From NCBI GenBank assembly GCA_910585045.1, contig CAJUCD010000003.1:42779-106778 (forward strand): DNA of 64,000 nt, written 5' to 3'. Source of the stretch: an uncultured Bacilli bacterium. GTDB taxonomy: Bacteria; Bacillota_I; Bacilli_A; RF39; UBA660. The translations under genes and the position numbers were made by a program. The notes under the pieces were generated by a model that searched no databases, had not been told where the DNA came from, and saw nothing but the letters and a program-made list of their open reading frames with translations. This document shows, in pieces, positions 4,927-59,862 of the stretch (its first letter is position 1; every line of letters starts with the position of its first letter).

Positions 4927-5526
4927 ATGAAGTTACATTCTAGTGAGAAGACAATTTTGTTAGCGATTGTTGTGTGTGTGTTGTTAATTTCTGGGGGATA
5001 TTCTTTTGCGTATTTTGTTAGTAATGGAGCTAATGTTACAGGTGAAGGAGGATCAACTAATATAAGTACTGCTAAGCTTATTAATGTTAAGTATGATGCT
5101 GGTTCTAGTAGTATTTCACTTGCAAATGCTTTACCAGGAGTAAAGTCAAGTAAGAATTTTAATATTACAGTAACTCCTATTGAGTCACAAAATACTGCTA
5201 ATTATACAATTAAATTGGTTATTAATTCTAATACTTTTGTTAAATGTACAGATGCTAATTATAATGCTAATAGTAATGCTTGTGTTAAAGATAGTGAAGA
5301 ACTTGTTTATACTTTGACTGATAGTGAAGGTGGAGTTTTTACAGGAGATATTACAGGAAAAACTGGTGAGATAGTATTGTTAAATGAAAGAAAAACAACT
5401 GCAGTAGAAGAAGTTTATAATTATACTTTAGAAGTAAGTTATAAGAATACAGGTGCGGATCAAAATCATAATTTTAATAAGACTTTAGAAGCTTTATTAA
5501 AAGTAGAACCTACAAAGGAAAATTAG
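4927..5526 (+). CDS. second SipW-cognate secreted protein (TasA-like paralog, about 200 aa)
   Basis: N-terminal TM segment followed by GGYSFAYFVSNGANVTGEGG, the same signal class. RBS GGAGG at 4916-4920. Start chosen at the ATG at 4927 (MKLHSSEK). Confidence 0.6.
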   Translation: MKLHSSEKTILLAIVVCVLLISGGYSFAYFVSNGANVTGEGGSTNISTAKLINVKYDAGSSSISLANALPGVKSSKNFNITVTPIESQNTANYTIKLVINSNTFVKCTDANYNANSNACVKDSEELVYTLTDSEGGVFTGDITGKTGEIVLLNERKTTAVEEVYNYTLEVSYKNTGADQNHNFNKTLEALLKVEPTKEN

Positions 5527-5634
5527 AAGCGATTATTTTCGCTTTTTTTATTTATTTGGAAGATATTTTACTATTTTATTATTGCGAATAAGAGCGCATT
5601 GTGTTATACTTTTTAATAGTAGGGAGTGTCAGTT

Positions 5635-8400
5635 ATGGATGATATGAATTTACAAGAACAGTATGCAATACTAGAAAAAGAAAGGGAAGAAGATAAAAGA
5701 AAAACTATTATAATTATAATTTTATGTATTTTAATTATATTAATTACCCTATTAGGATTGTATTTTGCTTATTCTAATGTTGGTAAAACTTGTACTTTGA
5801 ATTGTGATACCAATGGTGATGGAATTCCTGATACTAACTTAGATATTGATGGTGATGGAATTTGTGATATTAATTGCTTGGTTACTGGTAAAGATGGCAA
5901 GGAATATATGATAAATATTGATTACAATGGTGATAGAAAAGCACATTTTAATGTTGATACTGATGGTGATGGAATTCCTGATGTTAACTTAGTTAATAAA
6001 GATATTAATGGTGATGGAATTTGTGATTTTAACTGTGATATTGATGGTGATGGAAGGCCAGATATTAATATTGATTTAGATAACACTAATACATGTGATT
6101 TAAATTGCGATACCAATGGTGATGGCAAACCAGATATTAATATTGATACTAATGGAGATGGTAAATGCGATCTTAACTGTGATACTACGGGAGATGGAAG
6201 ACCAAATATAAACATTGATACCAATGGTGATGGAAAATGTGATCTTAACTGTGATACTAATGGAGATGGCAAACCAGATATTAATATTGATATTGATGGT
6301 GATAAAAAACCAGATATTAATATTGATATCAATGGAGATGGTAAACCAGACATAAATATTGATACTGATGGTGATGGCAAACCAGATATAAATATTGATT
6401 ATGATGGTGATGGAAAATGTGATTTCAACTGCGATACTAATGGTGATGGCAAACCAGATGATAATCTTATGAATCAAGATACCAATGGCGATGGTAAATG
6501 CGATCTTAACTGTGATACAAATGGCAATGGTAAACCAGATATTAATATTGATACTAATGGTGATGGCAAACCAGACATAAATGTTGATACTAATGGTGAT
6601 GGTAAACCAGATATAAATATTGATGTTGATAAAGATAAAAAACCAGATATAAATGTTGATACCAATGGCGATGGTAAACCAGATGATAATCTTATGAATC
6701 AAGACACAAACGGTGATGGAAAATGTGATTTCAACTGCGATACTAATGGAGATGGTTTCCCAGATATAAATATTGATATTGATGGTGATGGCAAATGCGA
6801 CCTTAACTGTGACACAGATGGTGATGGCAAATGTGATGTTAACTGCGATACTAATGGCGATGGTAAACCAGATATTAATATAGATGAAACTGGCGATGGC
6901 AAATGTGACATCAATTGTGATACTAATGGTGATGGCAAATGTGATGTTAACTGTGATACAGATAGTGATGGCAAATGTGATGTTAATTGTGACACCAATG
7001 GCGATGGTAAACCAGATATAAATATTGATACCAATGGTGATGGCAAATGTGATTTCAACTGCGACACAGATGGTGATGGTAAACCAGATGATAATCTTAT
7101 GAATCAAGATACAGATGGTGATGGTAAATGTGATCTTAACTGTGATACTAATGGAGATGGAAAGCCAGATATAAATATTGATAATAACGGTGACGGAAAG
7201 CCAGATACTAATATTGATACTAATGGTGATGGCAAACCAGATATTAATATTGATGTTGATAAAGATGGTAGACCAGATGTTAATATAGACACAGATGGTG
7301 ATAAAAAACCAGATGATAATCTTATGAATCAAGATACCAATGGCGATGGCAAATGTGATCTTAACTGTGACACAGATGGTGATGGGTTCCCAGATATAAA
7401 TATTGATATAGATGGCGATAAAGTTTGCGATTTAAATTGCGATAATGATGGCGATGGAAAATGTGATCTTAACTGTGATACAGATGGTGATGGCAAACCA
7501 GATACTAATATTGATACAGATGGCGATGGAAAGCCAGATAAAGATATAGATAAAGATGGTGACGGCAAACCAGATACTAATGTGGATAAAGATGGCGATG
7601 GTAATTGTGATTTAAATTGTGATGTTGATAAAGATGGTGTATGTGATTATAATTGTGACACCAATGGTGATGGAATTTGTGATTATAATTGTACAACTAC
7701 TTTTGAAAAGAATGCTAATTTAAAATCATTAACTATAAATAATTATGCTTTAAGTCCAGTATTTAATGAAAACATTACTAGCTATACAATAAGAGTTGGT
7801 TATAATACAAATAAAGTTAATATTAAAGCTGTTCCTGCTAATCCTAAAGCTACAGTGACTGGTGATGGAGAAGTAGTTCTTACAGGTAGTACAACATATA
7901 CTTCAGTAGTTGTAACTGCAGAGGATGGTACTAAGAAAACATATAATATAACAATTATTAAGAGTGATAAACCTGGTACTTCTGAGGGTGGAGACGATAA
8001 TGATAAAGTTGAAATTGAAAATGGTTCTTTAATTGTTAATTATACAAAAGATATTAATGTTAATAATATTTATCCAAAATGGAGAGGTTCTCAAACATTT
8101 ACAATAACTAATAAATCTAAGTCAACTGTAACTTATAATATTAATTTGAAAAATGTTATAAATACATTTAATAGTGATGACTTTAAATATACTTTATTTA
8201 AGGATAATGTGGTTTTAGTTAAACAAACTCCTGCTCCTAGAAAAGATGGCTCTATATATCAAAACTTAGTTCTTGCAGCTGGTGAATCTGCTACATTTGA
8301 ATTAAGATTTGAGTTTGTAGAAACTGGAAAGCCACAAGATGCTGATATAGGAGTACGTTATTCTTCTAAAGTAGAAATTAGTATTGTGTCTGTAAATTAA
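5635..8400 (+). CDS. large secreted repeat protein. It has a SipW-type signal anchor, about 45 tandem acidic Ca-binding-type repeats (DxNGDGKPDINID / CDLNCD, resembling thrombospondin type-3 repeats), and a C-terminal cadherin-like Ig/beta-sandwich region.
   Basis: Protein reads ...LLGLYFAYSNVGKTCTLNCDTNGDGIPD..., then dozens of DTNGDGKPDINID and CDLNCD units, ending in ...NANLKSLTINNYALSPVFNENITSYTIRVGYNT... (cadherin-like). RBS AGGGAG at 5621-5626. The ATG at 5635 is the likely start; the track used a GTG at 5626. Confidence 0.8.
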   Translation: MDDMNLQEQYAILEKEREEDKRKTIIIIILCILIILITLLGLYFAYSNVGKTCTLNCDTNGDGIPDTNLDIDGDGICDINCLVTGKDGKEYMINIDYNGDRKAHFNVDTDGDGIPDVNLVNKDINGDGICDFNCDIDGDGRPDINIDLDNTNTCDLNCDTNGDGKPDINIDTNGDGKCDLNCDTTGDGRPNINIDTNGDGKCDLNCDTNGDGKPDINIDIDGDKKPDINIDINGDGKPDINIDTDGDGKPDINIDYDGDGKCDFNCDTNGDGKPDDNLMNQDTNGDGKCDLNCDTNGNGKPDINIDTNGDGKPDINVDTNGDGKPDINIDVDKDKKPDINVDTNGDGKPDDNLMNQDTNGDGKCDFNCDTNGDGFPDINIDIDGDGKCDLNCDTDGDGKCDVNCDTNGDGKPDINIDETGDGKCDINCDTNGDGKCDVNCDTDSDGKCDVNCDTNGDGKPDINIDTNGDGKCDFNCDTDGDGKPDDNLMNQDTDGDGKCDLNCDTNGDGKPDINIDNNGDGKPDTNIDTNGDGKPDINIDVDKDGRPDVNIDTDGDKKPDDNLMNQDTNGDGKCDLNCDTDGDGFPDINIDIDGDKVCDLNCDNDGDGKCDLNCDTDGDGKPDTNIDTDGDGKPDKDIDKDGDGKPDTNVDKDGDGNCDLNCDVDKDGVCDYNCDTNGDGICDYNCTTTFEKNANLKSLTINNYALSPVFNENITSYTIRVGYNTNKVNIKAVPANPKATVTGDGEVVLTGSTTYTSVVVTAEDGTKKTYNITIIKSDKPGTSEGGDDNDKVEIENGSLIVNYTKDINVNNIYPKWRGSQTFTITNKSKSTVTYNINLKNVINTFNSDDFKYTLFKDNVVLVKQTPAPRKDGSIYQNLVLAAGESATFELRFEFVETGKPQDADIGVRYSSKVEISIVSVN
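5790..7700 (+). repeat. in-frame coding tandem repeats (39-54 nt units) encoding D-x-[ND]-G-D-G-K-[PC]-D loops
   Basis: Highly periodic ggtgatgg(c/t)aaaccagat / tgtgat(c/t)ttaactgtgat units are visible in the DNA. Confidence 0.8.
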
Positions 8401-48868: not shown

Positions 48869-48942
48869 TGGAGGGGCCTACCGGATTTGAACCGGTGCTC
48901 AGGGAGTTGCAGTCCCTTGCCTTACCGCTTGGCTAAAGCCCC
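48869..48942 (-). tRNA. tRNA-Cys (anticodon GCA)
   Basis: Reverse complement GGGGCTTTAGCCAAGCGGTAAGGCAAGGGACTGCAACTCCCTGAGCACCGGTTCAAATCCGGTAGGCCCCTCCA: anticodon loop CTGCAAC, T-arm GGTTCAAATCC, 3' CCA. Confidence 0.85.
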
Positions 48943-49062
48943 ATTAATATATATTATGCAATCTTTCTTTGCAATATTATTGTATTATAATTCTTTAGAT
49001 TTGTCAATTAAGATATATTGATTTTTCAAGTTAGGTATTATATACTAATGTTAGTGATTGTT

Positions 49063-50454
49063 ATGAGAAGTAAATTGAGTGCAACTATAGGTGGAAAATG
49101 GCAAATTTTAGATTATAATTTAGATGGTGAATTAACATGTATTCCAGATACAGGCGAAATCACTTTAGTGATTCATTATGTTGATTATTTTCCCTTTAAA
49201 AAGTTTCAAAAATTTAATAAAGTTTCAGATATAAAAGAAATTTGGGGTGTTACCTCTTTTAGGCAAAAATGTGTACTTTTAGAATGTCAATTTATTAGTG
49301 ATTATTCTTTTAATGCCGATCATGAATTAACAATTAAAGCTAAATATTTAATATGGGATATGACTAAAGTAAAAGATGAAGAAATTAAATTTAATAAAAT
49401 GTCTTTTAGATTAACTAATAGTTTATTATGGTCGGGAATGCAATGTTATAATTCTTTTAAAAAAGATGATAAATATTTAATATCTTGTGATTTTGGTGAG
49501 AAAATAATTAAAAGTGATTTAAAAACAGAAATAAAGTTTTGTGCAACTATAAATAGCATTGATGGATTTATGCGAGCAGAAAAAATAGAGTTATATCAAT
49601 ATTTGGAAGTAATAATAAAGAAGAGTGAATTAACTCATTATACTGAGTTTTTAGAAGATATAAAGAAAGTGATAAATTTGATTAAATTAGCTACCAATGA
49701 AGAAGTTAATATTAATGAAATTTGTGGTTATAGAAATGATAAAACTTATGTGTGTGGAGATAAAAAGTATTATTATGAATTTTGTATGGTAACTAATGAG
49801 ATGCGAAATAATATTTTAAGTTATTGTGATGATACAAATTATTTATATAGTCTTCCTAATATGATAAGTGAAGGTAAAATAGAGGTATGGTTCAAAACAT
49901 ATAATGATTATAAAAATGTATATGAATTATATTTATTGTCTTATAAAGATGAAGTTTCCTCAGAGATTAGTTTTATTTATTTAGTTCAGGCTTTAGAACT
50001 TTTGCATCGAATTAAATTTAAAAATAAGAATAAGTTTATGAAATATTTAAAAAATAAATTGCAAGATAAGAAAGAGTTATGGGATAATATTAGAGAAAAT
50101 AGTGATCAAGAAGATTCTAGATATATAATTCTACGTAGTAGATTGATTGATATGATAGATTGTGATTTTGAAATTAAAAATGATTTTAAAGAAGAAACAA
50201 TTATAAAATTAGCAGATATAATTACTAATAGTAGAAATTATTATACACATTTTAGTGAATCTAAAAAAGAGAAATGTGTTAGAAAGAAAAGTCTTTCATA
50301 TGTTATGGAAATTTTAAGATATTTTATTAAATGTTATGCTCTAAAAGAATTAGGATTTGATATTAACTATATTAATGAGAAAACAGAATCAAGTTTGGAA
50401 TACATTAGATATTATAATATGATAGAAAAAATATTAAGTGAAAATGGAGATTAA
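49063..50454 (+). CDS. hypothetical protein (463 aa) with a C-terminal HEPN-like R-N-x-x-x-H motif
   Basis: ADIITNSRNYYTHFSE (R at 50233) fits the HEPN Rx4-6H signature, with a following aromatic. The N-terminal 380 aa are unrecognised. Stop is 2 nt before the start of the next gene. Confidence 0.5.
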   Translation: MRSKLSATIGGKWQILDYNLDGELTCIPDTGEITLVIHYVDYFPFKKFQKFNKVSDIKEIWGVTSFRQKCVLLECQFISDYSFNADHELTIKAKYLIWDMTKVKDEEIKFNKMSFRLTNSLLWSGMQCYNSFKKDDKYLISCDFGEKIIKSDLKTEIKFCATINSIDGFMRAEKIELYQYLEVIIKKSELTHYTEFLEDIKKVINLIKLATNEEVNINEICGYRNDKTYVCGDKKYYYEFCMVTNEMRNNILSYCDDTNYLYSLPNMISEGKIEVWFKTYNDYKNVYELYLLSYKDEVSSEISFIYLVQALELLHRIKFKNKNKFMKYLKNKLQDKKELWDNIRENSDQEDSRYIILRSRLIDMIDCDFEIKNDFKEETIIKLADIITNSRNYYTHFSESKKEKCVRKKSLSYVMEILRYFIKCYALKELGFDINYINEKTESSLEYIRYYNMIEKILSENGD

Positions 50455-50456
50455 TA

Positions 50457-51155
50457 ATGATAGAAGAAGTTAAAAGGTATACTTTAGAGTTTTTAGAAGA
50501 AGAAAAGTCTGGTCATGGTATGGATCATGCTTTAAGAGTTTTTGATTTAGCTTCAAAATTTGCATTAGTTGAAGGAGCAGATATACAAGTTGTAGGAATT
50601 GCAGCACTAATTCATGATGTTGATGATTATAAAATTGTGGGAGATGCTAAATCTTTAGATTTGCTGAATGCCAAAAAAATAATGGATAAAGCAGAAGTTC
50701 CTATGCAAATACAAGAAATGGTTTTAAATATTATTAAAAATATGGGTTATAAAAATTATTTAAAAGGTATTAGACCTAAAACGCTAGAAGGAATGATAGT
50801 TTCAGATGCGGATATGTGTGAAGCAATAGGTGCGCATGGAATAATACGATCAGTTGTGTATGCTGTTAGTGATAAAGGTTCAGGGGTTATTTTTGATAAA
50901 AATGTTTGGCCTAATGTTAATATGACTTTTGATGATTATAATAAAAATGGAACTACTTATGATACTGATAATGCTATTAATTATTGTTTTGAAAAAATGT
51001 TAAAGTTAAAAGATTTAATGTTATGTAAGAGTGGTAAATTTGAAGCAGAGAAGAGACATCAGTTTATTATTGATTTTTTAAAACAGTTTTTTATGGAAGA
51101 ACAAGAATTAGATTGGCTCAATTATTTAGATAATTATTTGGAAGAATTAAATTAG
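50457..51155 (+). CDS. HD-domain metal-dependent phosphohydrolase
   Basis: H...HD signature: GHGMDHALRV ... IAALIHDVDDYK ... D. Confidence 0.75.
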   Translation: MIEEVKRYTLEFLEEEKSGHGMDHALRVFDLASKFALVEGADIQVVGIAALIHDVDDYKIVGDAKSLDLLNAKKIMDKAEVPMQIQEMVLNIIKNMGYKNYLKGIRPKTLEGMIVSDADMCEAIGAHGIIRSVVYAVSDKGSGVIFDKNVWPNVNMTFDDYNKNGTTYDTDNAINYCFEKMLKLKDLMLCKSGKFEAEKRHQFIIDFLKQFFMEEQELDWLNYLDNYLEELN

Positions 51156-51213
51156 TTATGCAAAAAATGTATAACTTTTTTTTATGTACTCATAATAAGA
51201 ATGGAGGTCTATT

Positions 51214-55977: not shown

Positions 55978-56063
55978 GCTTGTGTGGCGGAATGGTAGAC
56001 GCACCAGACTCAAAATCTGGCGAGGTCAAACTCGTGTGGGTTCAAGTCCCACCACAAGCACCA
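55978..56063 (+). tRNA. tRNA-Leu (anticodon CAA), class II with a long variable arm
   Basis: GCTTGTGTGGCGGAATGGTAGACGCACCAGACTCAAAATCTGGCGAGGTCAAACTCGTGTGGGTTCAAGTCCCACCACAAGCACCA. Anticodon loop CTCAAAA, T-loop GGTTCAAGTCC, 3' CCA. Confidence 0.9.
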
Positions 56064-56147
56064 GATTGATATGAAATGGCTTCGAAAAGTTAGAAAAAGA
56101 ATGTATAATAAAAATATATTCTTAAACTTGGAAGGAGTCATTTTTTA

Positions 56148-57235
56148 ATGAAAAAAACGATAGAAGAAAAACTTGAAATGTGTAAAGAACATGTAGTAGA
56201 GGGAAAGTCATTATCACACATATGTGAATTACACAATACAAGAAACATAGATGATTTAAAATATCTAGTTAATTTATATAAAAGATATGGAGAAGAACCA
56301 TTTTTAAACAGAGAAAGAATGATATATAGAAGAGCAACAAAACTATTAACTATAAGCAGAATAAAAAATGGAGACAAGTAAGTTTGGATATCGGATTAAT
56401 AAATTATAAAACGGCATTAGATTGGGTAAAAAAGTATGATACAGAAGGAGAACAATCAATACAAGATACTTATCCTAGAAAAAACTATTTAAATGAAGAT
56501 GAACGATATAAAAAGATGATAGATAAGAAATTAATGGAAGAAAATGAAAGATTAAAAGCAGAGATTGATTTCTTAAAAAAATCGCAGTCCTTAGCAAAAA
56601 AACTAGAATAACTAACAACAAAAGAAAAAGTAAAAGTTGTCAATGAGCTAAGGATAAAGTATGAATTAAAAGTTCTTCTAGAAATGGCAGATATTCCATT
56701 GTCAGTATATTATTATCAGTTAAATGCAATAAAAAATAAAGTCAACTATAGAAGATATAATTCTTATAAAGGTGATTTAGGAGGAGTAAAGGAAAATGTT
56801 TTAAATCAAGATTTCAAGGCAACAAAACCTTATGAAAAAGCAGGAACAGATGCAAAATTAGAAAAAGTATTAAACATGATAAAGAAATTAAAAGAAAATC
56901 ATCAGGAAAATATAAAAGGTATGATAATACAATCAGATCAAGGTGTACAATACCAAAACTCTAGATATTCAGAATTGTTAAATGAATATGAAATAATCCA
57001 ATCAATGAACAGAAAAGGAAATTGTTTAGATAACTCTCCGACAGAAAATTTTTTTGGAAGACTAAAAGAAGAAATATGGTATAATAAAGAATATAAATAT
57101 GAAAACTCTGTGGAATTAATAAAAGAAATTCATAATTATATAAAATATTATAATGAAATACGGATAGTGACTAAATTAAAAACAACTCCAATTGATTTTA
57201 GGAAAAAATGCTTAAGTGAACTGGGAGTTGCATAA
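56148..57235 (+). mobile_element. decayed IS3-family (IS150-like) insertion sequence: OrfA split into two pieces and a truncated OrfB (rve) C-terminal part; non-functional
   Basis: OrfA-like ...YLVNLYKRYGEEPF plus a leucine-zipper piece ...LMEENERLKAEIDFLKK. OrfB piece ...IIQSDQGVQYQNSRYSELL...QSMNRKGNCLDNSPTENFFGRLKEE matches the integrase-core C-terminus. No intact DDE region. Confidence 0.7.
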
Positions 57236-57362
57236 ATTTTTTTCTAACTTTTTGAAGTCGTTTCAAAAATGGATTTTATTTAAAAATGAAACGGAAATTA
57301 TTCAAAAGTTATTTCACCTATGATATAATTAATTCAGATACAATGAAGGGGGAATTTATCAT

Positions 57363-58255
57363 ATGAAAAATAATTTAATCAAAACAGAAATAGATGTTAT
57401 TAATAATAAAATAAGTGTAATGAGAATAGACGGCATAGATTATATATCTCTTACAGATTTAGCAAAATATACAAATCCTGAAGATCCATCTGGAGTAATT
57501 AGAAATTGGATGTCTAATAAAAATTCTTTTGAATATTATAGTCTTTGGGAAGAGATTAATAATAGAGATTTTAATTCCGTGGAATCTCACAGAATTAAAA
57601 TTAATGAAGTTGGGTATAATCGATTTACTATGACACCAAATCGTTGGAAAAGAGATTTTAATGCAATCGGTATAATACCAAGCAGTGGTAATATAGTCAA
57701 GGAACTTTTGCCCACCCAGATATAGCATTCGAATTCGCTAGTTGGTTAAGCCCAGAGTTCAAATTGTATTTAATAAAAGAATTCGAAAGATTAAAGAAAA
57801 ATGAGGCTTATCAGGAAAAAATAGAATGGCGTGCTAATAGGTTATTATCTAAAGCAAATTATATAGTTCATACTGATGCTGTTAAAAATTATATTGTTCC
57901 AACATTAACAGAACAGCAAAAGAAGTTTATATATGCAGAAGAAGCTGATGTGTTAAATGTAGCTTTATTTGGAATGACAGCTAAAGAGTGGAGGAAAAAG
58001 AATCCAAAACTTGCTGAAGATGGTAATATAAGAGATTATACAGATTTATTACATTTAATAATATTAAACAATTTAGAGAATTCTAATGCTGAATTTATAA
58101 AATTGGGGATTGTTCAAAGAGAGAGGCTAATAAAATTAAATGAATCTGCTCGAAATCAAATGGAAATCTTAAAAAACAATAACGGAATAAAAGAATTAGA
58201 AATGTTACAAAATCAAATAAATAATAGTGGGTATTTAATCGATAATAAAAATTGA
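57363..58255 (+). pseudogene. KilA-N domain protein (phage antirepressor-type) disrupted by a frameshift near 57700
   Basis: Frame 1 gives the KilA-N N-terminal part (...ISVMRIDGIDYISLTDLAKY...NWMSNKNSFEYYSLWEEINNRDFNS...) and stops at 57725. The conserved continuation GTFAHPDIAFEFASWLSPEFKLYLIKEFERLK is in a different frame from about 57703 and runs into the 57764..58255 ORF. Confidence 0.6.
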
Positions 58256-58689
58256 TTTTACTATAATAAATTGAAATAAAAGTTACTAGTGGAAATGAAA
58301 CGGAAATTATTCGGAAGTTGAAATTTTGATATAGAATTTTGAAAATAAAGAATTAAAGGAAAATCAATAATCAATTATAAACACAAATATTATAACACCT
58401 TATAAAACCTAAAGACTTACGTTAATAATTTAAAAATTAGCAAGAAATTATCCAAACTTAAATCGGAAGTTATTCAAAAATTTCTAAAATGAGAAAATAT
58501 GATATGGCTATTTAGAGTGACTTTTGATATAATGAAAATGCCAATGGGGAGAGTTCAAATAAGAGCCTTATAACACACCAGATTGATAGTAAACTCGAAC
58601 TTTTATGTTTCGAGTTTTAATATGCTTTAAATTATTGTATAATGTATTTGTAGTAATCAAACTAATTTATTTATTGGGAAGTTTAATTA

Positions 58690-58796
58690 ACAAAAAAATA
58701 TTTAAATTAGAAATTAATGAAAATGATAACAAAATAAAAGTAATAAGAATAGGATCTAAGGAATATATATCTGTAACTGATTTAGTACAGTTTTAA
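58690..58796 (+). pseudogene. second short KilA-N N-terminal fragment (KIFKLEINENDNKIKVIRIGSKEYISVTDL)
   Basis: Resembles LIKTEIDVINNKISVMRIDGIDYISLTDL of the upstream KilA-N gene; truncated after about 35 aa. Confidence 0.3.
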
Positions 58797-59352
58797 AACA
58801 TTTACTAATTTTATTTAGAAAACACTAATGTTGAACTTATTAACGATTGAAATACAAAGGTAAAAAATTACGCCAAAAAAACTATATTTTTTTAATATAG
58901 CTTTATAATTAACGTAATCATTTTTTAAAATGGTTAACTATTTTAGAGATTAGTTAAAGTAAATAAAACATGGAATATTATATTTATTCTTTCTCTATAT
59001 ATACTTAAGTTTGTTACTTCTTCAATAAAGTCTTTATATTAATCGTTTTTAATATTCCTATGGTTAGACATATTACGATTATTATTACTATTATTAGTAT
59101 TTTCTTCTTTTGCATCATTACTATTTTCCCTTTATTTTATACTCGATAATAAATTTAATTCAATTTTATCATAATATTAGAGTATTGATAATTTTTTTTA
59201 TTAAAAATAAAAAATTGAAAAAATATTATTTATAAAATAAGATTAAATAAAAGAATATTTTATTGTTATAAATGCTGAATGTTAATAATCATTGCTTGTA
59301 GCAACGAGCTACTTTGCATATAATAGGCAGTAAAGAAAGGAGTTGTTCTAAA

Positions 59353-59862
59353 ATGCTTAAAGAAAACATTAAAACAATAAGGAAATCAAGAGGTCTTTCT
59401 CAAGAGGAGCTTGCTATTAAAGTAAATGTAGTAAGACAAACTATTTCTAAGTGGGAGCAAGGATTATCTGTTCCTGATTCAGAAATGTTAATTAGAATAT
59501 CAGAAGTTCTTGAAATACCAGTAAGTACTTTGCTGGGAGAGAATATTTCTGAATTTAAAAAAGATGATTTAAAAGTAATTTCTGATAAATTAGAGATTAT
59601 AAATTTACAACTTTTACAAAGAAAACTTGCAAGAAGAAAAATAATTCATTTGACATTAATTTTTATATGTATAAGTGTAATAGTGATTGGCTGTTGTTTA
59701 TTTTTGTTACATAGTTCTTATTTAAATTGGAATTATGATGATCCTGAAAAGAGTGTTTTGGGAGTGTTTTTTCATTCGTTTGAATGGCTATTTGTAAGAA
59801 TAGCACCTATAATTGTTATCATATCATTAGTGGGAATAATGTTGACTCGAAATAAAGATTAG
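59353..59862 (+). CDS. membrane-anchored XRE-family HTH regulator (N-terminal HTH_3 plus two C-terminal TM helices)
   Basis: IRKSRGLSQEELAIKVNVVRQTISKWEQG, then LTLIFICISVIVIGCCLFLL and APIIVIISLVGIML. RBS AAAGGAG; ATG at 59353. Confidence 0.6.
   Translation: MLKENIKTIRKSRGLSQEELAIKVNVVRQTISKWEQGLSVPDSEMLIRISEVLEIPVSTLLGENISEFKKDDLKVISDKLEIINLQLLQRKLARRKIIHLTLIFICISVIVIGCCLFLLHSSYLNWNYDDPEKSVLGVFFHSFEWLFVRIAPIIVIISLVGIMLTRNKD

Follow-up and report, generated by a model that had tools for sequence, protein, structure and literature searches.

We wanted to know whether the two genes that lie between tRNA-Cys and the spoVA operon of an uncultured Bacilli bacterium form a common defence module, or whether one of them is a defence gene placed beside a resident gene. 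The window, that is the whole stretch of DNA that was analysed, is 64,000 nucleotides long. In it, a gene for a HEPN-domain protein of 463 residues is followed by a gene for an HD-domain phosphohydrolase (Table 1), and a preliminary description had read the pair as a two-gene cassette. Its account of the layout was correct: tRNA-Cys adjoins on the opposite strand, the HEPN gene stops (TAA, 50452-50454) 2 nt before the HD start codon (ATG, 50457), and a hairpin with a U-run stands before spoVA. The HEPN reading frame has possible starts at 49018, 49048 and 49063 and ends at 50454; the ATG at 49063, giving the 463-aa form, is the start that matches the N-termini of the homologues in the alignment. 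Upstream of this ATG, a consensus scan detected a putative promoter-like site on the + strand (TTGATT-17-TATACT), and in the same intergenic region a second putative site on the - strand, for tRNA-Cys (TTGACA-17-TACAAT). Rfam matched the tRNA alone and no further RNA element over the intergenic regions. The sequence GGAG is found 8 nt upstream of the HD ATG, placing the ribosome-binding site within the 3' end of the HEPN gene. After the HD gene, a terminator-like hairpin with a 9-bp stem and a 5-nt loop at 51154-51176, then U8 (-9.9 kcal/mol, z = -3.47), overlaps the HD stop codon, with spoVAC downstream; a generic terminator scan did not pick it up because its stem has few G-C pairs. Owing to the 2-nt spacing, the HEPN and HD genes are probably one transcription unit ending at this hairpin.

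Table 1. Features of the locus, in window positions.
Feature	Position	Strand	Basis or remark
tRNA-Cys(GCA)	48869..48942	-	ARAGORN; Rfam tRNA, 66.7 bits; left landmark of the insertion site
Intergenic region, 120 bp	48943..49062	.	Divergent promoter-like sites, consensus scan only
ApeA_NTD1 + HEPN_Apea protein, 463 aa	49063..50454	+	Pfam, PADLOC, homologue alignment, AF2
N-terminal beta-rich domain ApeA_NTD1, residues 1-245, presumed sensor/regulatory	49063..49797	+	
C-terminal helical HEPN domain, residues 264-463	49852..50451	+	
Rx4H motif R391-N-Y-Y-T-H396 (inside S-R-N-Y-Y-T-H-F), predicted catalytic	50233..50250	+	
HD-domain phosphohydrolase, YpgQ/YedJ-like, 232 aa	50457..51155	+	Pfam HD; PDB homologues
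Intrinsic-terminator-like hairpin + U8	51154..51184	+	RNA fold

To define the HEPN protein, we looked at its domains, its motif and its predicted fold. Its first 380 residues had been said to resemble nothing recognisable, yet residues 18-240 match Pfam ApeA_NTD1 (PF18862), scoring 82.2 bits where 25.5 is the cut-off. The C-terminal part matches HEPN_Apea (PF18739) with 52 bits, far over the cut-off, which bears out the expected HEPN-clan membership, and this match encloses R-N-Y-Y-T-H. R391, N392, Y393, Y394, T395 and H396, as well as E312, are invariant in all 16 aligned homologues. The RNxxxH motif noticed earlier is thus more than a chance occurrence, given this invariance and its place within the significant HEPN_Apea match. 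It is not the end of the protein, as had been stated, since 67 residues follow H396, and the numbering R406/H411 given to it belongs to the 478-aa ORF with a TTG start. The AF2 model of the 463-aa protein (pLDDT 84, pTM 0.83) is beta-rich over residues 1-245. The family profile aligns with the protein from end to end with 617 bits, and the PADLOC PDC-S58 model PDLC05048 matches residues 11-457 over profile positions 8-456 of 461 (1.5e-31). A phage origin of the gene was rejected, PHROG having given no match for the protein. A beta-rich NTD1, a HEPN_Apea domain in which an Rx4-6H motif is conserved, a full-length profile match and a single-gene organization, the features of the ApeA_NTD1-HEPN_Apea/PDC-S58 family, are all found here. 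Judged from its sequence, the product is a stand-alone member of this family and a candidate abortive-infection RNase.

The ApeA_NTD1-HEPN proteins, predicted to be anti-phage RNases, form a very common family that has been catalogued before. The architecture, ApeA-NTD1 fused to HEPN (Apea), was described by Anantharaman et al. 2013, with an ApeA_NTD1 of about 250-300 aa made mainly of beta strands (PMC3710099). At E<=1e-3, 11,174 cluster representatives were matched (clusters at 50% identity), and among the 150 matches listed the proteins are 439-507 aa long and aligned nearly full length. Like the members of this family, our protein has a size of about 460 aa, a beta N-terminal domain with conserved aromatics, an Rx4H motif and a single gene. 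It is 36-40% identical to its nearest relatives and at most 40% identical to anything else found, and it is a divergent branch of its family. For the genomic contexts of the relatives, a search seeded with the Rx4H motif retrieved 75 genomic relatives, which together with 6 from metagenomes gave 81 loci, with flanks fetched up to 6-8 kb. Contexts of the defence type were seen among the relatives, with AbiEii, with a DNA methylase and a transposase, with an integrase, AbiTii and HsdM, or with an XRE-type HTH gene, and no conserved neighbour gene was seen. Relatives stand in R-M or Abi contexts, whereas the divergent copy in the window stands in a core neighbourhood, in a MAG of a low-GC sporulating Firmicute from the mouse gut. 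No tested member was found in the literature on PDC-S58, ApeA_NTD1 (PF18862) or PF18739, searches of which returned only one S. thermophilus genome listing and the 2013 bioinformatic description.

The downstream gene had been described as an HD-domain hydrolase with HGMDH, and this was borne out. Its ORF encodes HGMDH and IHDVDD, and its product matches Pfam HD with 33.5 bits, above the cut-off of 22. Its structural homologues are PDB 3djb (1.4e-31), YpgQ 5dqv (3.4e-19) and YedJ 3gw7 (5e-8). All of 27 sequences keep H20, H24, H53, D54 and D119. The protein shares with YpgQ of B. subtilis, YedJ of E. coli and 3djb the H...HD...D metal ligands and a size of about 230 aa, as in stand-alone members of this type (about 210-240 aa), of which solved ones are homologous to it. 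Its score with the NCBIfam YedJ equivalog (52.6 bits) is far under the cut-off of 286; it is therefore a member of the family and no YedJ orthologue. YpgQ itself acts as a (d)NTP pyrophosphohydrolase and depends on Mn (PMC8177086). More than 450 homologues were found, at 46-68% identity. As a single query against genome contigs the HD protein gave no match, and its contexts were taken from contigs encoding its homologues. No YpgQ-like HD ORF was present within the fetched flanks of any of the 81 loci of HEPN-protein relatives, and in PADLOC the cassette was recognised for its HEPN half and not for its HD half. By these results, the HD gene is a widespread resident housekeeping homologue of YpgQ/YedJ-like hydrolases with no conserved HEPN partner.

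We then compared the locus with sister lineages. In two related contigs (L097 and L098; HD 59% identical), the order is RR-HK-DHH-SDR-DUF5698-CmpB-tRNA-Cys(-)-HD-spoVAC/D/Eb and the HEPN gene is absent. Their tRNA-Cys has the same orientation and stands directly upstream of HD, and the 120-bp intergenic region of the window can be aligned in part with their tRNA-Cys/HD intergenic region. A third contig (L019; HD 61% identical) carries DUF218-HD-spoVA-scpAB, again with no HEPN gene. Overall, the synteny of the sister lineages (CmpB, tRNA-Cys, HD, spoVAC/D/Eb, scpAB) is that of the window minus the HEPN gene, which is a one-gene insertion, polymorphic between lineages, between tRNA-Cys and the resident HD gene that precedes the spoVA operon. 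In L019, DUF218 ends at 1240 and HD starts at 1241, so that HD abuts an unrelated upstream gene just as tightly; the close packing thus belongs to the site of the HD gene. The suggestion that the pair is accessory was right for one half only: the HEPN gene is accessory, and the HD gene next to spoVA is core. All 12 contigs of the same species carry the HEPN gene, with an intact ORF of full family length in 11 and an ORF cut by the contig end in one (L018), but these contigs are near-clonal (>=99.8% identical) and their presence/absence pattern says little.

The adjacency of tRNA-Cys had been taken as a sign of a defence island. This did not stand: tRNA adjacency is no evidence for an island here because the HEPN gene lies 5' of the tRNA, on the promoter side, and the tRNA has its own divergent promoter-like site, and there is no integrase in the neighbourhood and no flanking repeat, the search for direct or inverted repeats having given only short AT-rich matches at chance level. 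A tRNA-integrated genomic island, recognised by an integrase, by duplication of the 3' end of the tRNA and by insertion on the 3' side, was rejected. The tRNA-Cys is no functional part of any HEPN module. The other genes around it have housekeeping roles (two-component system, DHH phosphatase, SDR, spoVA, scpAB), and these surroundings are a core chromosomal neighbourhood, no defence island. A compositional anomaly was also considered, with no clear signal: the GC content of the HEPN gene (22-24%) is only marginally lower than that of its neighbours (22-30%), therefore the insertion is not recent or the donor was similar.

The Pfam names of the two domains raise the question of whether the HEPN protein is an orthologue of the ApeA of Gao et al. 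2020. Such an orthologue would form a doughnut-shaped decamer, cleave tRNA anticodon loops and hold a deoxydinucleotide pocket between its N-terminal and HEPN domains. ApeA of this type forms a decameric or dodecameric ring, is activated by deoxydinucleotides and cleaves the anticodon loop of tRNA (bioRxiv 2026.01.26.701840, 2026.03.20.713152). Besides the name, they share a single-gene organization in which an N-terminal domain precedes a C-terminal HEPN domain with Rx4-6H, and mobile or defence contexts are common to both; they likely share the same logic, with N-terminal sensing and a C-terminal HEPN RNase in one polypeptide and abortive or direct RNA cleavage. However, Ec1ApeA (WP_000706972.1) and Ec2ApeA gave no Pfam ApeA_NTD1 or HEPN_Apea match at E<=1. 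They match the PADLOC 'ApeA' model PDLC02157, which our protein does not at E<=1, and NCBIfam gave no match for our protein either. With hhalign, the family profile reached a probability of 0.1% against Ec1ApeA. The E. coli proteins are about 600 aa long and mainly helical, with catenin-like and PafA-like domains (bioRxiv 2026.01.26.701840, 2026.03.20.713152); Ec1ApeA and Ec2ApeA, of 601 and 583 aa, have helical N-terminal and Mid domains with a ligand pocket, in contrast to the 463 aa and the beta-rich NTD1 of our protein. Bm1ApeA, a 467-aa 'minimal ApeA' that has been tested, might have connected the groups, but over its first 133 aa, the part compared, it has no match to the family profile, and its N-terminus is likewise unrelated. 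We consider this orthology extremely improbable. The name 'ApeA' covers two groups without detectable homology, the Pfam ApeA_NTD1/HEPN_Apea proteins and the Gao-2020 ApeA, and the mechanism of the latter is not simply transferable to our family because the two are not detectably homologous. Other known HEPN systems differ as well. A HEPN-MNT toxin-antitoxin was rejected: the neighbours are tRNA-Cys and HD with no MNT antitoxin, and the protein is too large and has an extra domain, HEPN proteins of these systems being about 140 aa long. Csm6 has a CARF domain and AbiA, with its C-terminal HEPN, a reverse-transcriptase domain, both absent here; unlike in HepT, Csm6 and AbiA, the regulatory domain of our protein would be the family-specific beta-rich NTD1.

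Could the HEPN and HD genes still be a two-gene defence or toxin module, in which the HD protein acts as a second effector or degrades a nucleotide activator as an antitoxin-like buffer? The 2-nt gap, the HD ribosome-binding site inside the HEPN gene and the terminator placed only after HD are what such a module would look like, and the structure of this tight junction, taken by itself, is compatible with a functional interaction of the two genes. There is also a precedent in Ec2ApeA, which is activated by 5'-phosphorylated deoxydinucleotides and whose toxicity is relieved by a co-expressed diDNase (bioRxiv 2026.01.26.701840), and HD enzymes of the YpgQ type act on (d)NTPs (PMC8177086). Against this, HD is found at this site in three related contigs that lack the HEPN gene, in one of them equally tight to DUF218; it accompanies none of the relatives in the fetched flanks and has no PADLOC match, and Ec2ApeA is not detectably homologous to our protein. 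The module, and with it the cassette first proposed, is largely refuted by comparative genomics, and we regard it as highly unlikely. In this lineage the HEPN gene has come to share an operon with the gene of a (d)NTP pyrophosphohydrolase; that this enzyme secondarily tunes the signal or limits autoimmunity is very unlikely. The gene could also be a domesticated or decaying remnant that has lost its defence function and is retained only through its transcription unit with HD. The housekeeping neighbourhood without hallmarks of mobile elements, a composition near that of the host and the low identity to the nearest relatives would fit a remnant, but the ORF is intact and of full family length in all 11 covering contigs, all invariant family residues are kept, including the catalytic motif, and the end-to-end profile score is strong. 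Such a remnant seems unlikely.

Altogether, these results make it probable that the HEPN gene encodes a lone ApeA_NTD1-HEPN candidate defence RNase, inserted singly before a housekeeping HD gene that is a bystander. We infer the RNase activity, the trigger, the target and the defence phenotype of this protein, its most likely mode of action being drawn from the HEPN superfamily in general and not from a tested family member. By analogy, HEPN domains would dimerise to form a composite RNase site, and the N-terminal domain would keep the protein inactive until a cue derived from infection appears. Once activated, the protein would cut RNA of the cell and/or of the phage (tRNA or mRNA), and phage replication would be aborted. 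The shared transcription with HD would be an accident of the insertion site, with no functional pairing.

The value of this locus is mainly corrective: what was described as a protein of no known kind in a cassette with an HD protein becomes a routine PDC-S58 candidate defence gene beside a housekeeping HD hydrolase. For proteins annotated as 'ApeA N-terminal domain 1-containing', the mechanism of the Gao-2020 ApeA (ring assembly, deoxydinucleotide activation, cleavage of the tRNA anticodon) should not be assumed. The family has over 11,000 clusters at 50% identity and no tested member was found in the literature, which makes it worth including when Firmicutes and Bacteroidota are screened for phage defence.

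We located the tRNA-Cys gene, the long ORF, the HD-domain ORF and the hairpin where the preliminary description had placed them. The ORF ending at 50454 has three possible starts (TTG 49018, ATG 49048 and ATG 49063), and ATG 49063, whose N-terminus aligns with that of homologues, is the predicted start of a 463-aa protein, hereafter the HEPN protein. The R-N-Y-Y-T-H motif had been said to end this protein, but it occupies residues 391-396 of 463; likewise, the R406/H411 numbering belongs to the 478-aa ORF starting at TTG and corresponds to R391/H396 in the 463-aa form. Two bases separate the stop codon (TAA, 50452-50454) from the HD ATG, which has a GGAG 8 nt upstream. The hairpin was missed by a generic terminator scan because its stem is AT-rich.

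Coordinates of features in the window
Feature	Position	Strand	Remarks
ORF, 501 aa	40220-41725		upstream housekeeping block; no Pfam match
ORF, 212 aa	46746-47384		upstream housekeeping block; no Pfam match
tRNA-Cys(GCA)	48869-48942	minus	
HEPN-protein ORF, 463-aa form	49063-50454	plus	start by N-terminal alignment with homologues
R-N-Y-Y-T-H motif	50233-50250		
HD-domain ORF, 232 aa	50457-51155	plus	
Hairpin (9-bp) + U8	51154-51184		overlaps HD stop codon; -9.9 kcal/mol, z = -3.5
ORF, 319 aa	53029-53988		no Pfam match
tRNA-Leu(CAA)	55978-56063		
Truncated IS3-type transposase	56684-57235		rve/rve_2
KilA-N domain protein	57363-57725		
XRE-type HTH protein	59314-59862		

The N-terminal part of the HEPN protein had been considered unlike anything recognised. 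Contrarily, residues 18-240 match Pfam ApeA_NTD1 (82 bits, E = 5.5e-23), showing that the protein is no orphan, and residues 307-433 match HEPN_Apea (52 bits, E = 1.5e-13). In PADLOC, the single-gene candidate PDC-S58 is matched over the full length (1.5e-31), and the Cas13-ApeA models match in the HEPN part only. Across 16 aligned family members with identities as low as 17%, R391, N392, Y393, Y394, T395, H396 and E312 are invariant. From this alignment, AlphaFold2 gave a confident model (pLDDT 84, pTM 0.83) in which residues 1-245 are almost all beta-strand and residues 264-463 are helical. The HEPN/ApeA-type call was judged right, and so was reading the gene as a defence candidate. Searched with the family profile, 1.84 billion cluster representatives gave 11,174 matches at E<=1e-3, of which 3,912 reached E<=1e-30; among the 150 matches listed, lengths were 439-507 aa and alignment was nearly end to end. 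Judged by these counts, the ApeA_NTD1 + HEPN_Apea family is very large. Identical copies aside, the closest relatives share 36-40% identity, and by this measure the HEPN protein is a divergent branch. A Bacteroidetes MAG contig (L066) carries two ApeA_NTD1-HEPN-like ORFs (1419-2933 and 5485-6834) about 2.5 kb apart, possibly as paralogues within a single island.

The Pfam names invite identification with the characterised ApeA systems of Gao et al. 2020. According to two 2026 preprints (bioRxiv 2026.01.26.701840 and 2026.03.20.713152), those proteins (Ec1ApeA, Ec2ApeA and others) are about 600 aa long and predominantly helical, assemble into decameric or dodecameric rings and cut tRNAs in their anticodon loops. 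The activators of Ec2ApeA are 5'-phosphorylated deoxydinucleotides (bioRxiv 2026.01.26.701840), and Ec1ApeA also cleaves RNA-phage genomes (2026 preprint work). The full-length E. coli sequences of Ec1ApeA and Ec2ApeA, taken from genomes, gave no Pfam ApeA_NTD1 or HEPN_Apea match at E<=1, and they match the PADLOC 'ApeA' model whereas the HEPN protein does not. Hhalign of the window-family profile against Ec1ApeA returned a probability of 0.1%, and the N-terminal 133 aa of the tested 'minimal' Bm1ApeA (467 aa), the part compared, are unrelated to the window family. We therefore rejected this identification and assign the HEPN protein to the Pfam/PADLOC PDC-S58 family. At the profile level, the shared name is a collision; a functional analogy, as a single-chain sensor with a HEPN RNase, is plausible. 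In their genomic loci, Ec1ApeA (L100:2501-4306) has an IS2 transposase on one side and a MobQ relaxase gene on the other, and Ec2ApeA (L101:2501-4252) lies inside P2-like prophage tail/lysis genes.

The HD protein matched PDB 3djb (1.4e-31), B. subtilis YpgQ 5dqv (3.4e-19) and E. coli YedJ (5e-8), and the H...HD...D ligands are invariant in its family alignment. These similarities place it among the stand-alone HD phosphohydrolases of YpgQ/YedJ type; YpgQ itself acts as a Mn-dependent (d)NTP pyrophosphohydrolase (PMC8177086). Homologues number more than 450, with identities of 46-68%, in Firmicutes and beyond, and PADLOC gave no match for the HD protein. The two genes had been proposed to form a defence cassette, and their tight junction could suggest this. 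In two related contigs, L097 and L098 (HD 59% identical), the order is as in the window, with response regulator, histidine kinase, DHH phosphatase, SDR, small ORF, DUF5698 and CmpB, then tRNA-Cys on the minus strand, HD, spoVAC, spoVAD and spoVAEb; there is no HEPN gene, and HD directly follows the tRNA-Cys intergenic region. A third contig, L019 (HD 61% identical), also lacks the HEPN gene at its locus, DUF218-HD-spoVAC/D/Eb-ORF-scpA-scpB. There, HD has a zero gap to its upstream gene, so tight spacing is a habit of the HD gene and no evidence of partnership. Conversely, six metagenomic contigs with 36-40% relatives of the HEPN protein lack an HD neighbour and carry instead AbiEii; DNA methylase and transposase; integrase, AbiTii and HsdM; or an XRE-type HTH gene. 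An HD-family hmmsearch found no match in any ORF of 75 genomic loci encoding HEPN-protein relatives, with flanks up to 6 kb. HD being kept without the HEPN gene in these three contigs and missing near the HEPN relatives of these 81 loci, we rejected it as a partner, and the cassette is not supported. The core-or-accessory check set out in the preliminary description splits the proposed pair: the HEPN gene stands as an accessory insertion, and HD belongs to the core here. A role of HD in modulating a nucleotide activator has a low probability. The 319-aa ORF between spoVAEb and scpA keeps its synteny in the window, L019 and L098 (316-319 aa), and encodes a lineage-conserved protein that may be linked to sporulation or chromosome segregation.

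The argument for a tRNA island is not supported at tRNA-Cys: the HEPN gene lies 5' of this tRNA, no integrase was found among the surrounding genes, which are housekeeping, and no repeat scar flanks it. The GC dip at the gene is only marginal, and a strong promoter-like site belonging to tRNA-Cys itself (TTGACA-17-TACAAT) faces away. The genome is extremely rich in A+T, with about 22-31% GC over 44-56 kb of the window. Mobile-type genes lie just downstream of tRNA-Leu(CAA), and region 55978-59862 has the look of a tRNA-associated remnant of a mobile element or prophage; gene calls after this tRNA are not the same in the near-clonal contigs L009 and L010. Any tRNA-linked island in the window would be there and not at tRNA-Cys. 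All 12 same-species contigs carry the HEPN gene, complete in 11 and cut by the contig end in the twelfth; with identities to the window of 99.8% or more, these contigs sample an essentially clonal population. Mouse-gut metagenomes and MAGs labelled 'Bacilli bacterium' (GCA_022794375.1 and others) are the source of the identical copies, and exact peptide patterns did not recover the species in the GTDB-representative genome collection.

Through the insertion, the HEPN gene probably came to separate the HD start from the ancestral promoter region of HD, and the resulting two-gene transcript would end at the hairpin. The HEPN domains would dimerise into a composite Rx4H RNase site, with the beta-barrel N-terminal domain holding the protein inactive until an infection cue is sensed. 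RNA cleavage would then halt translation and abort infection, and the HD enzyme would keep a housekeeping nucleotide-cleaning role. Interest is modest and comes mainly from the name collision with characterised ApeA and from the large size of a family for which the literature searched yielded no experimental studies of PDC-S58 or ApeA_NTD1. The HEPN protein adds a new, divergent member to a predicted defence family that is already known and very common, and its genomic setting is unremarkable.
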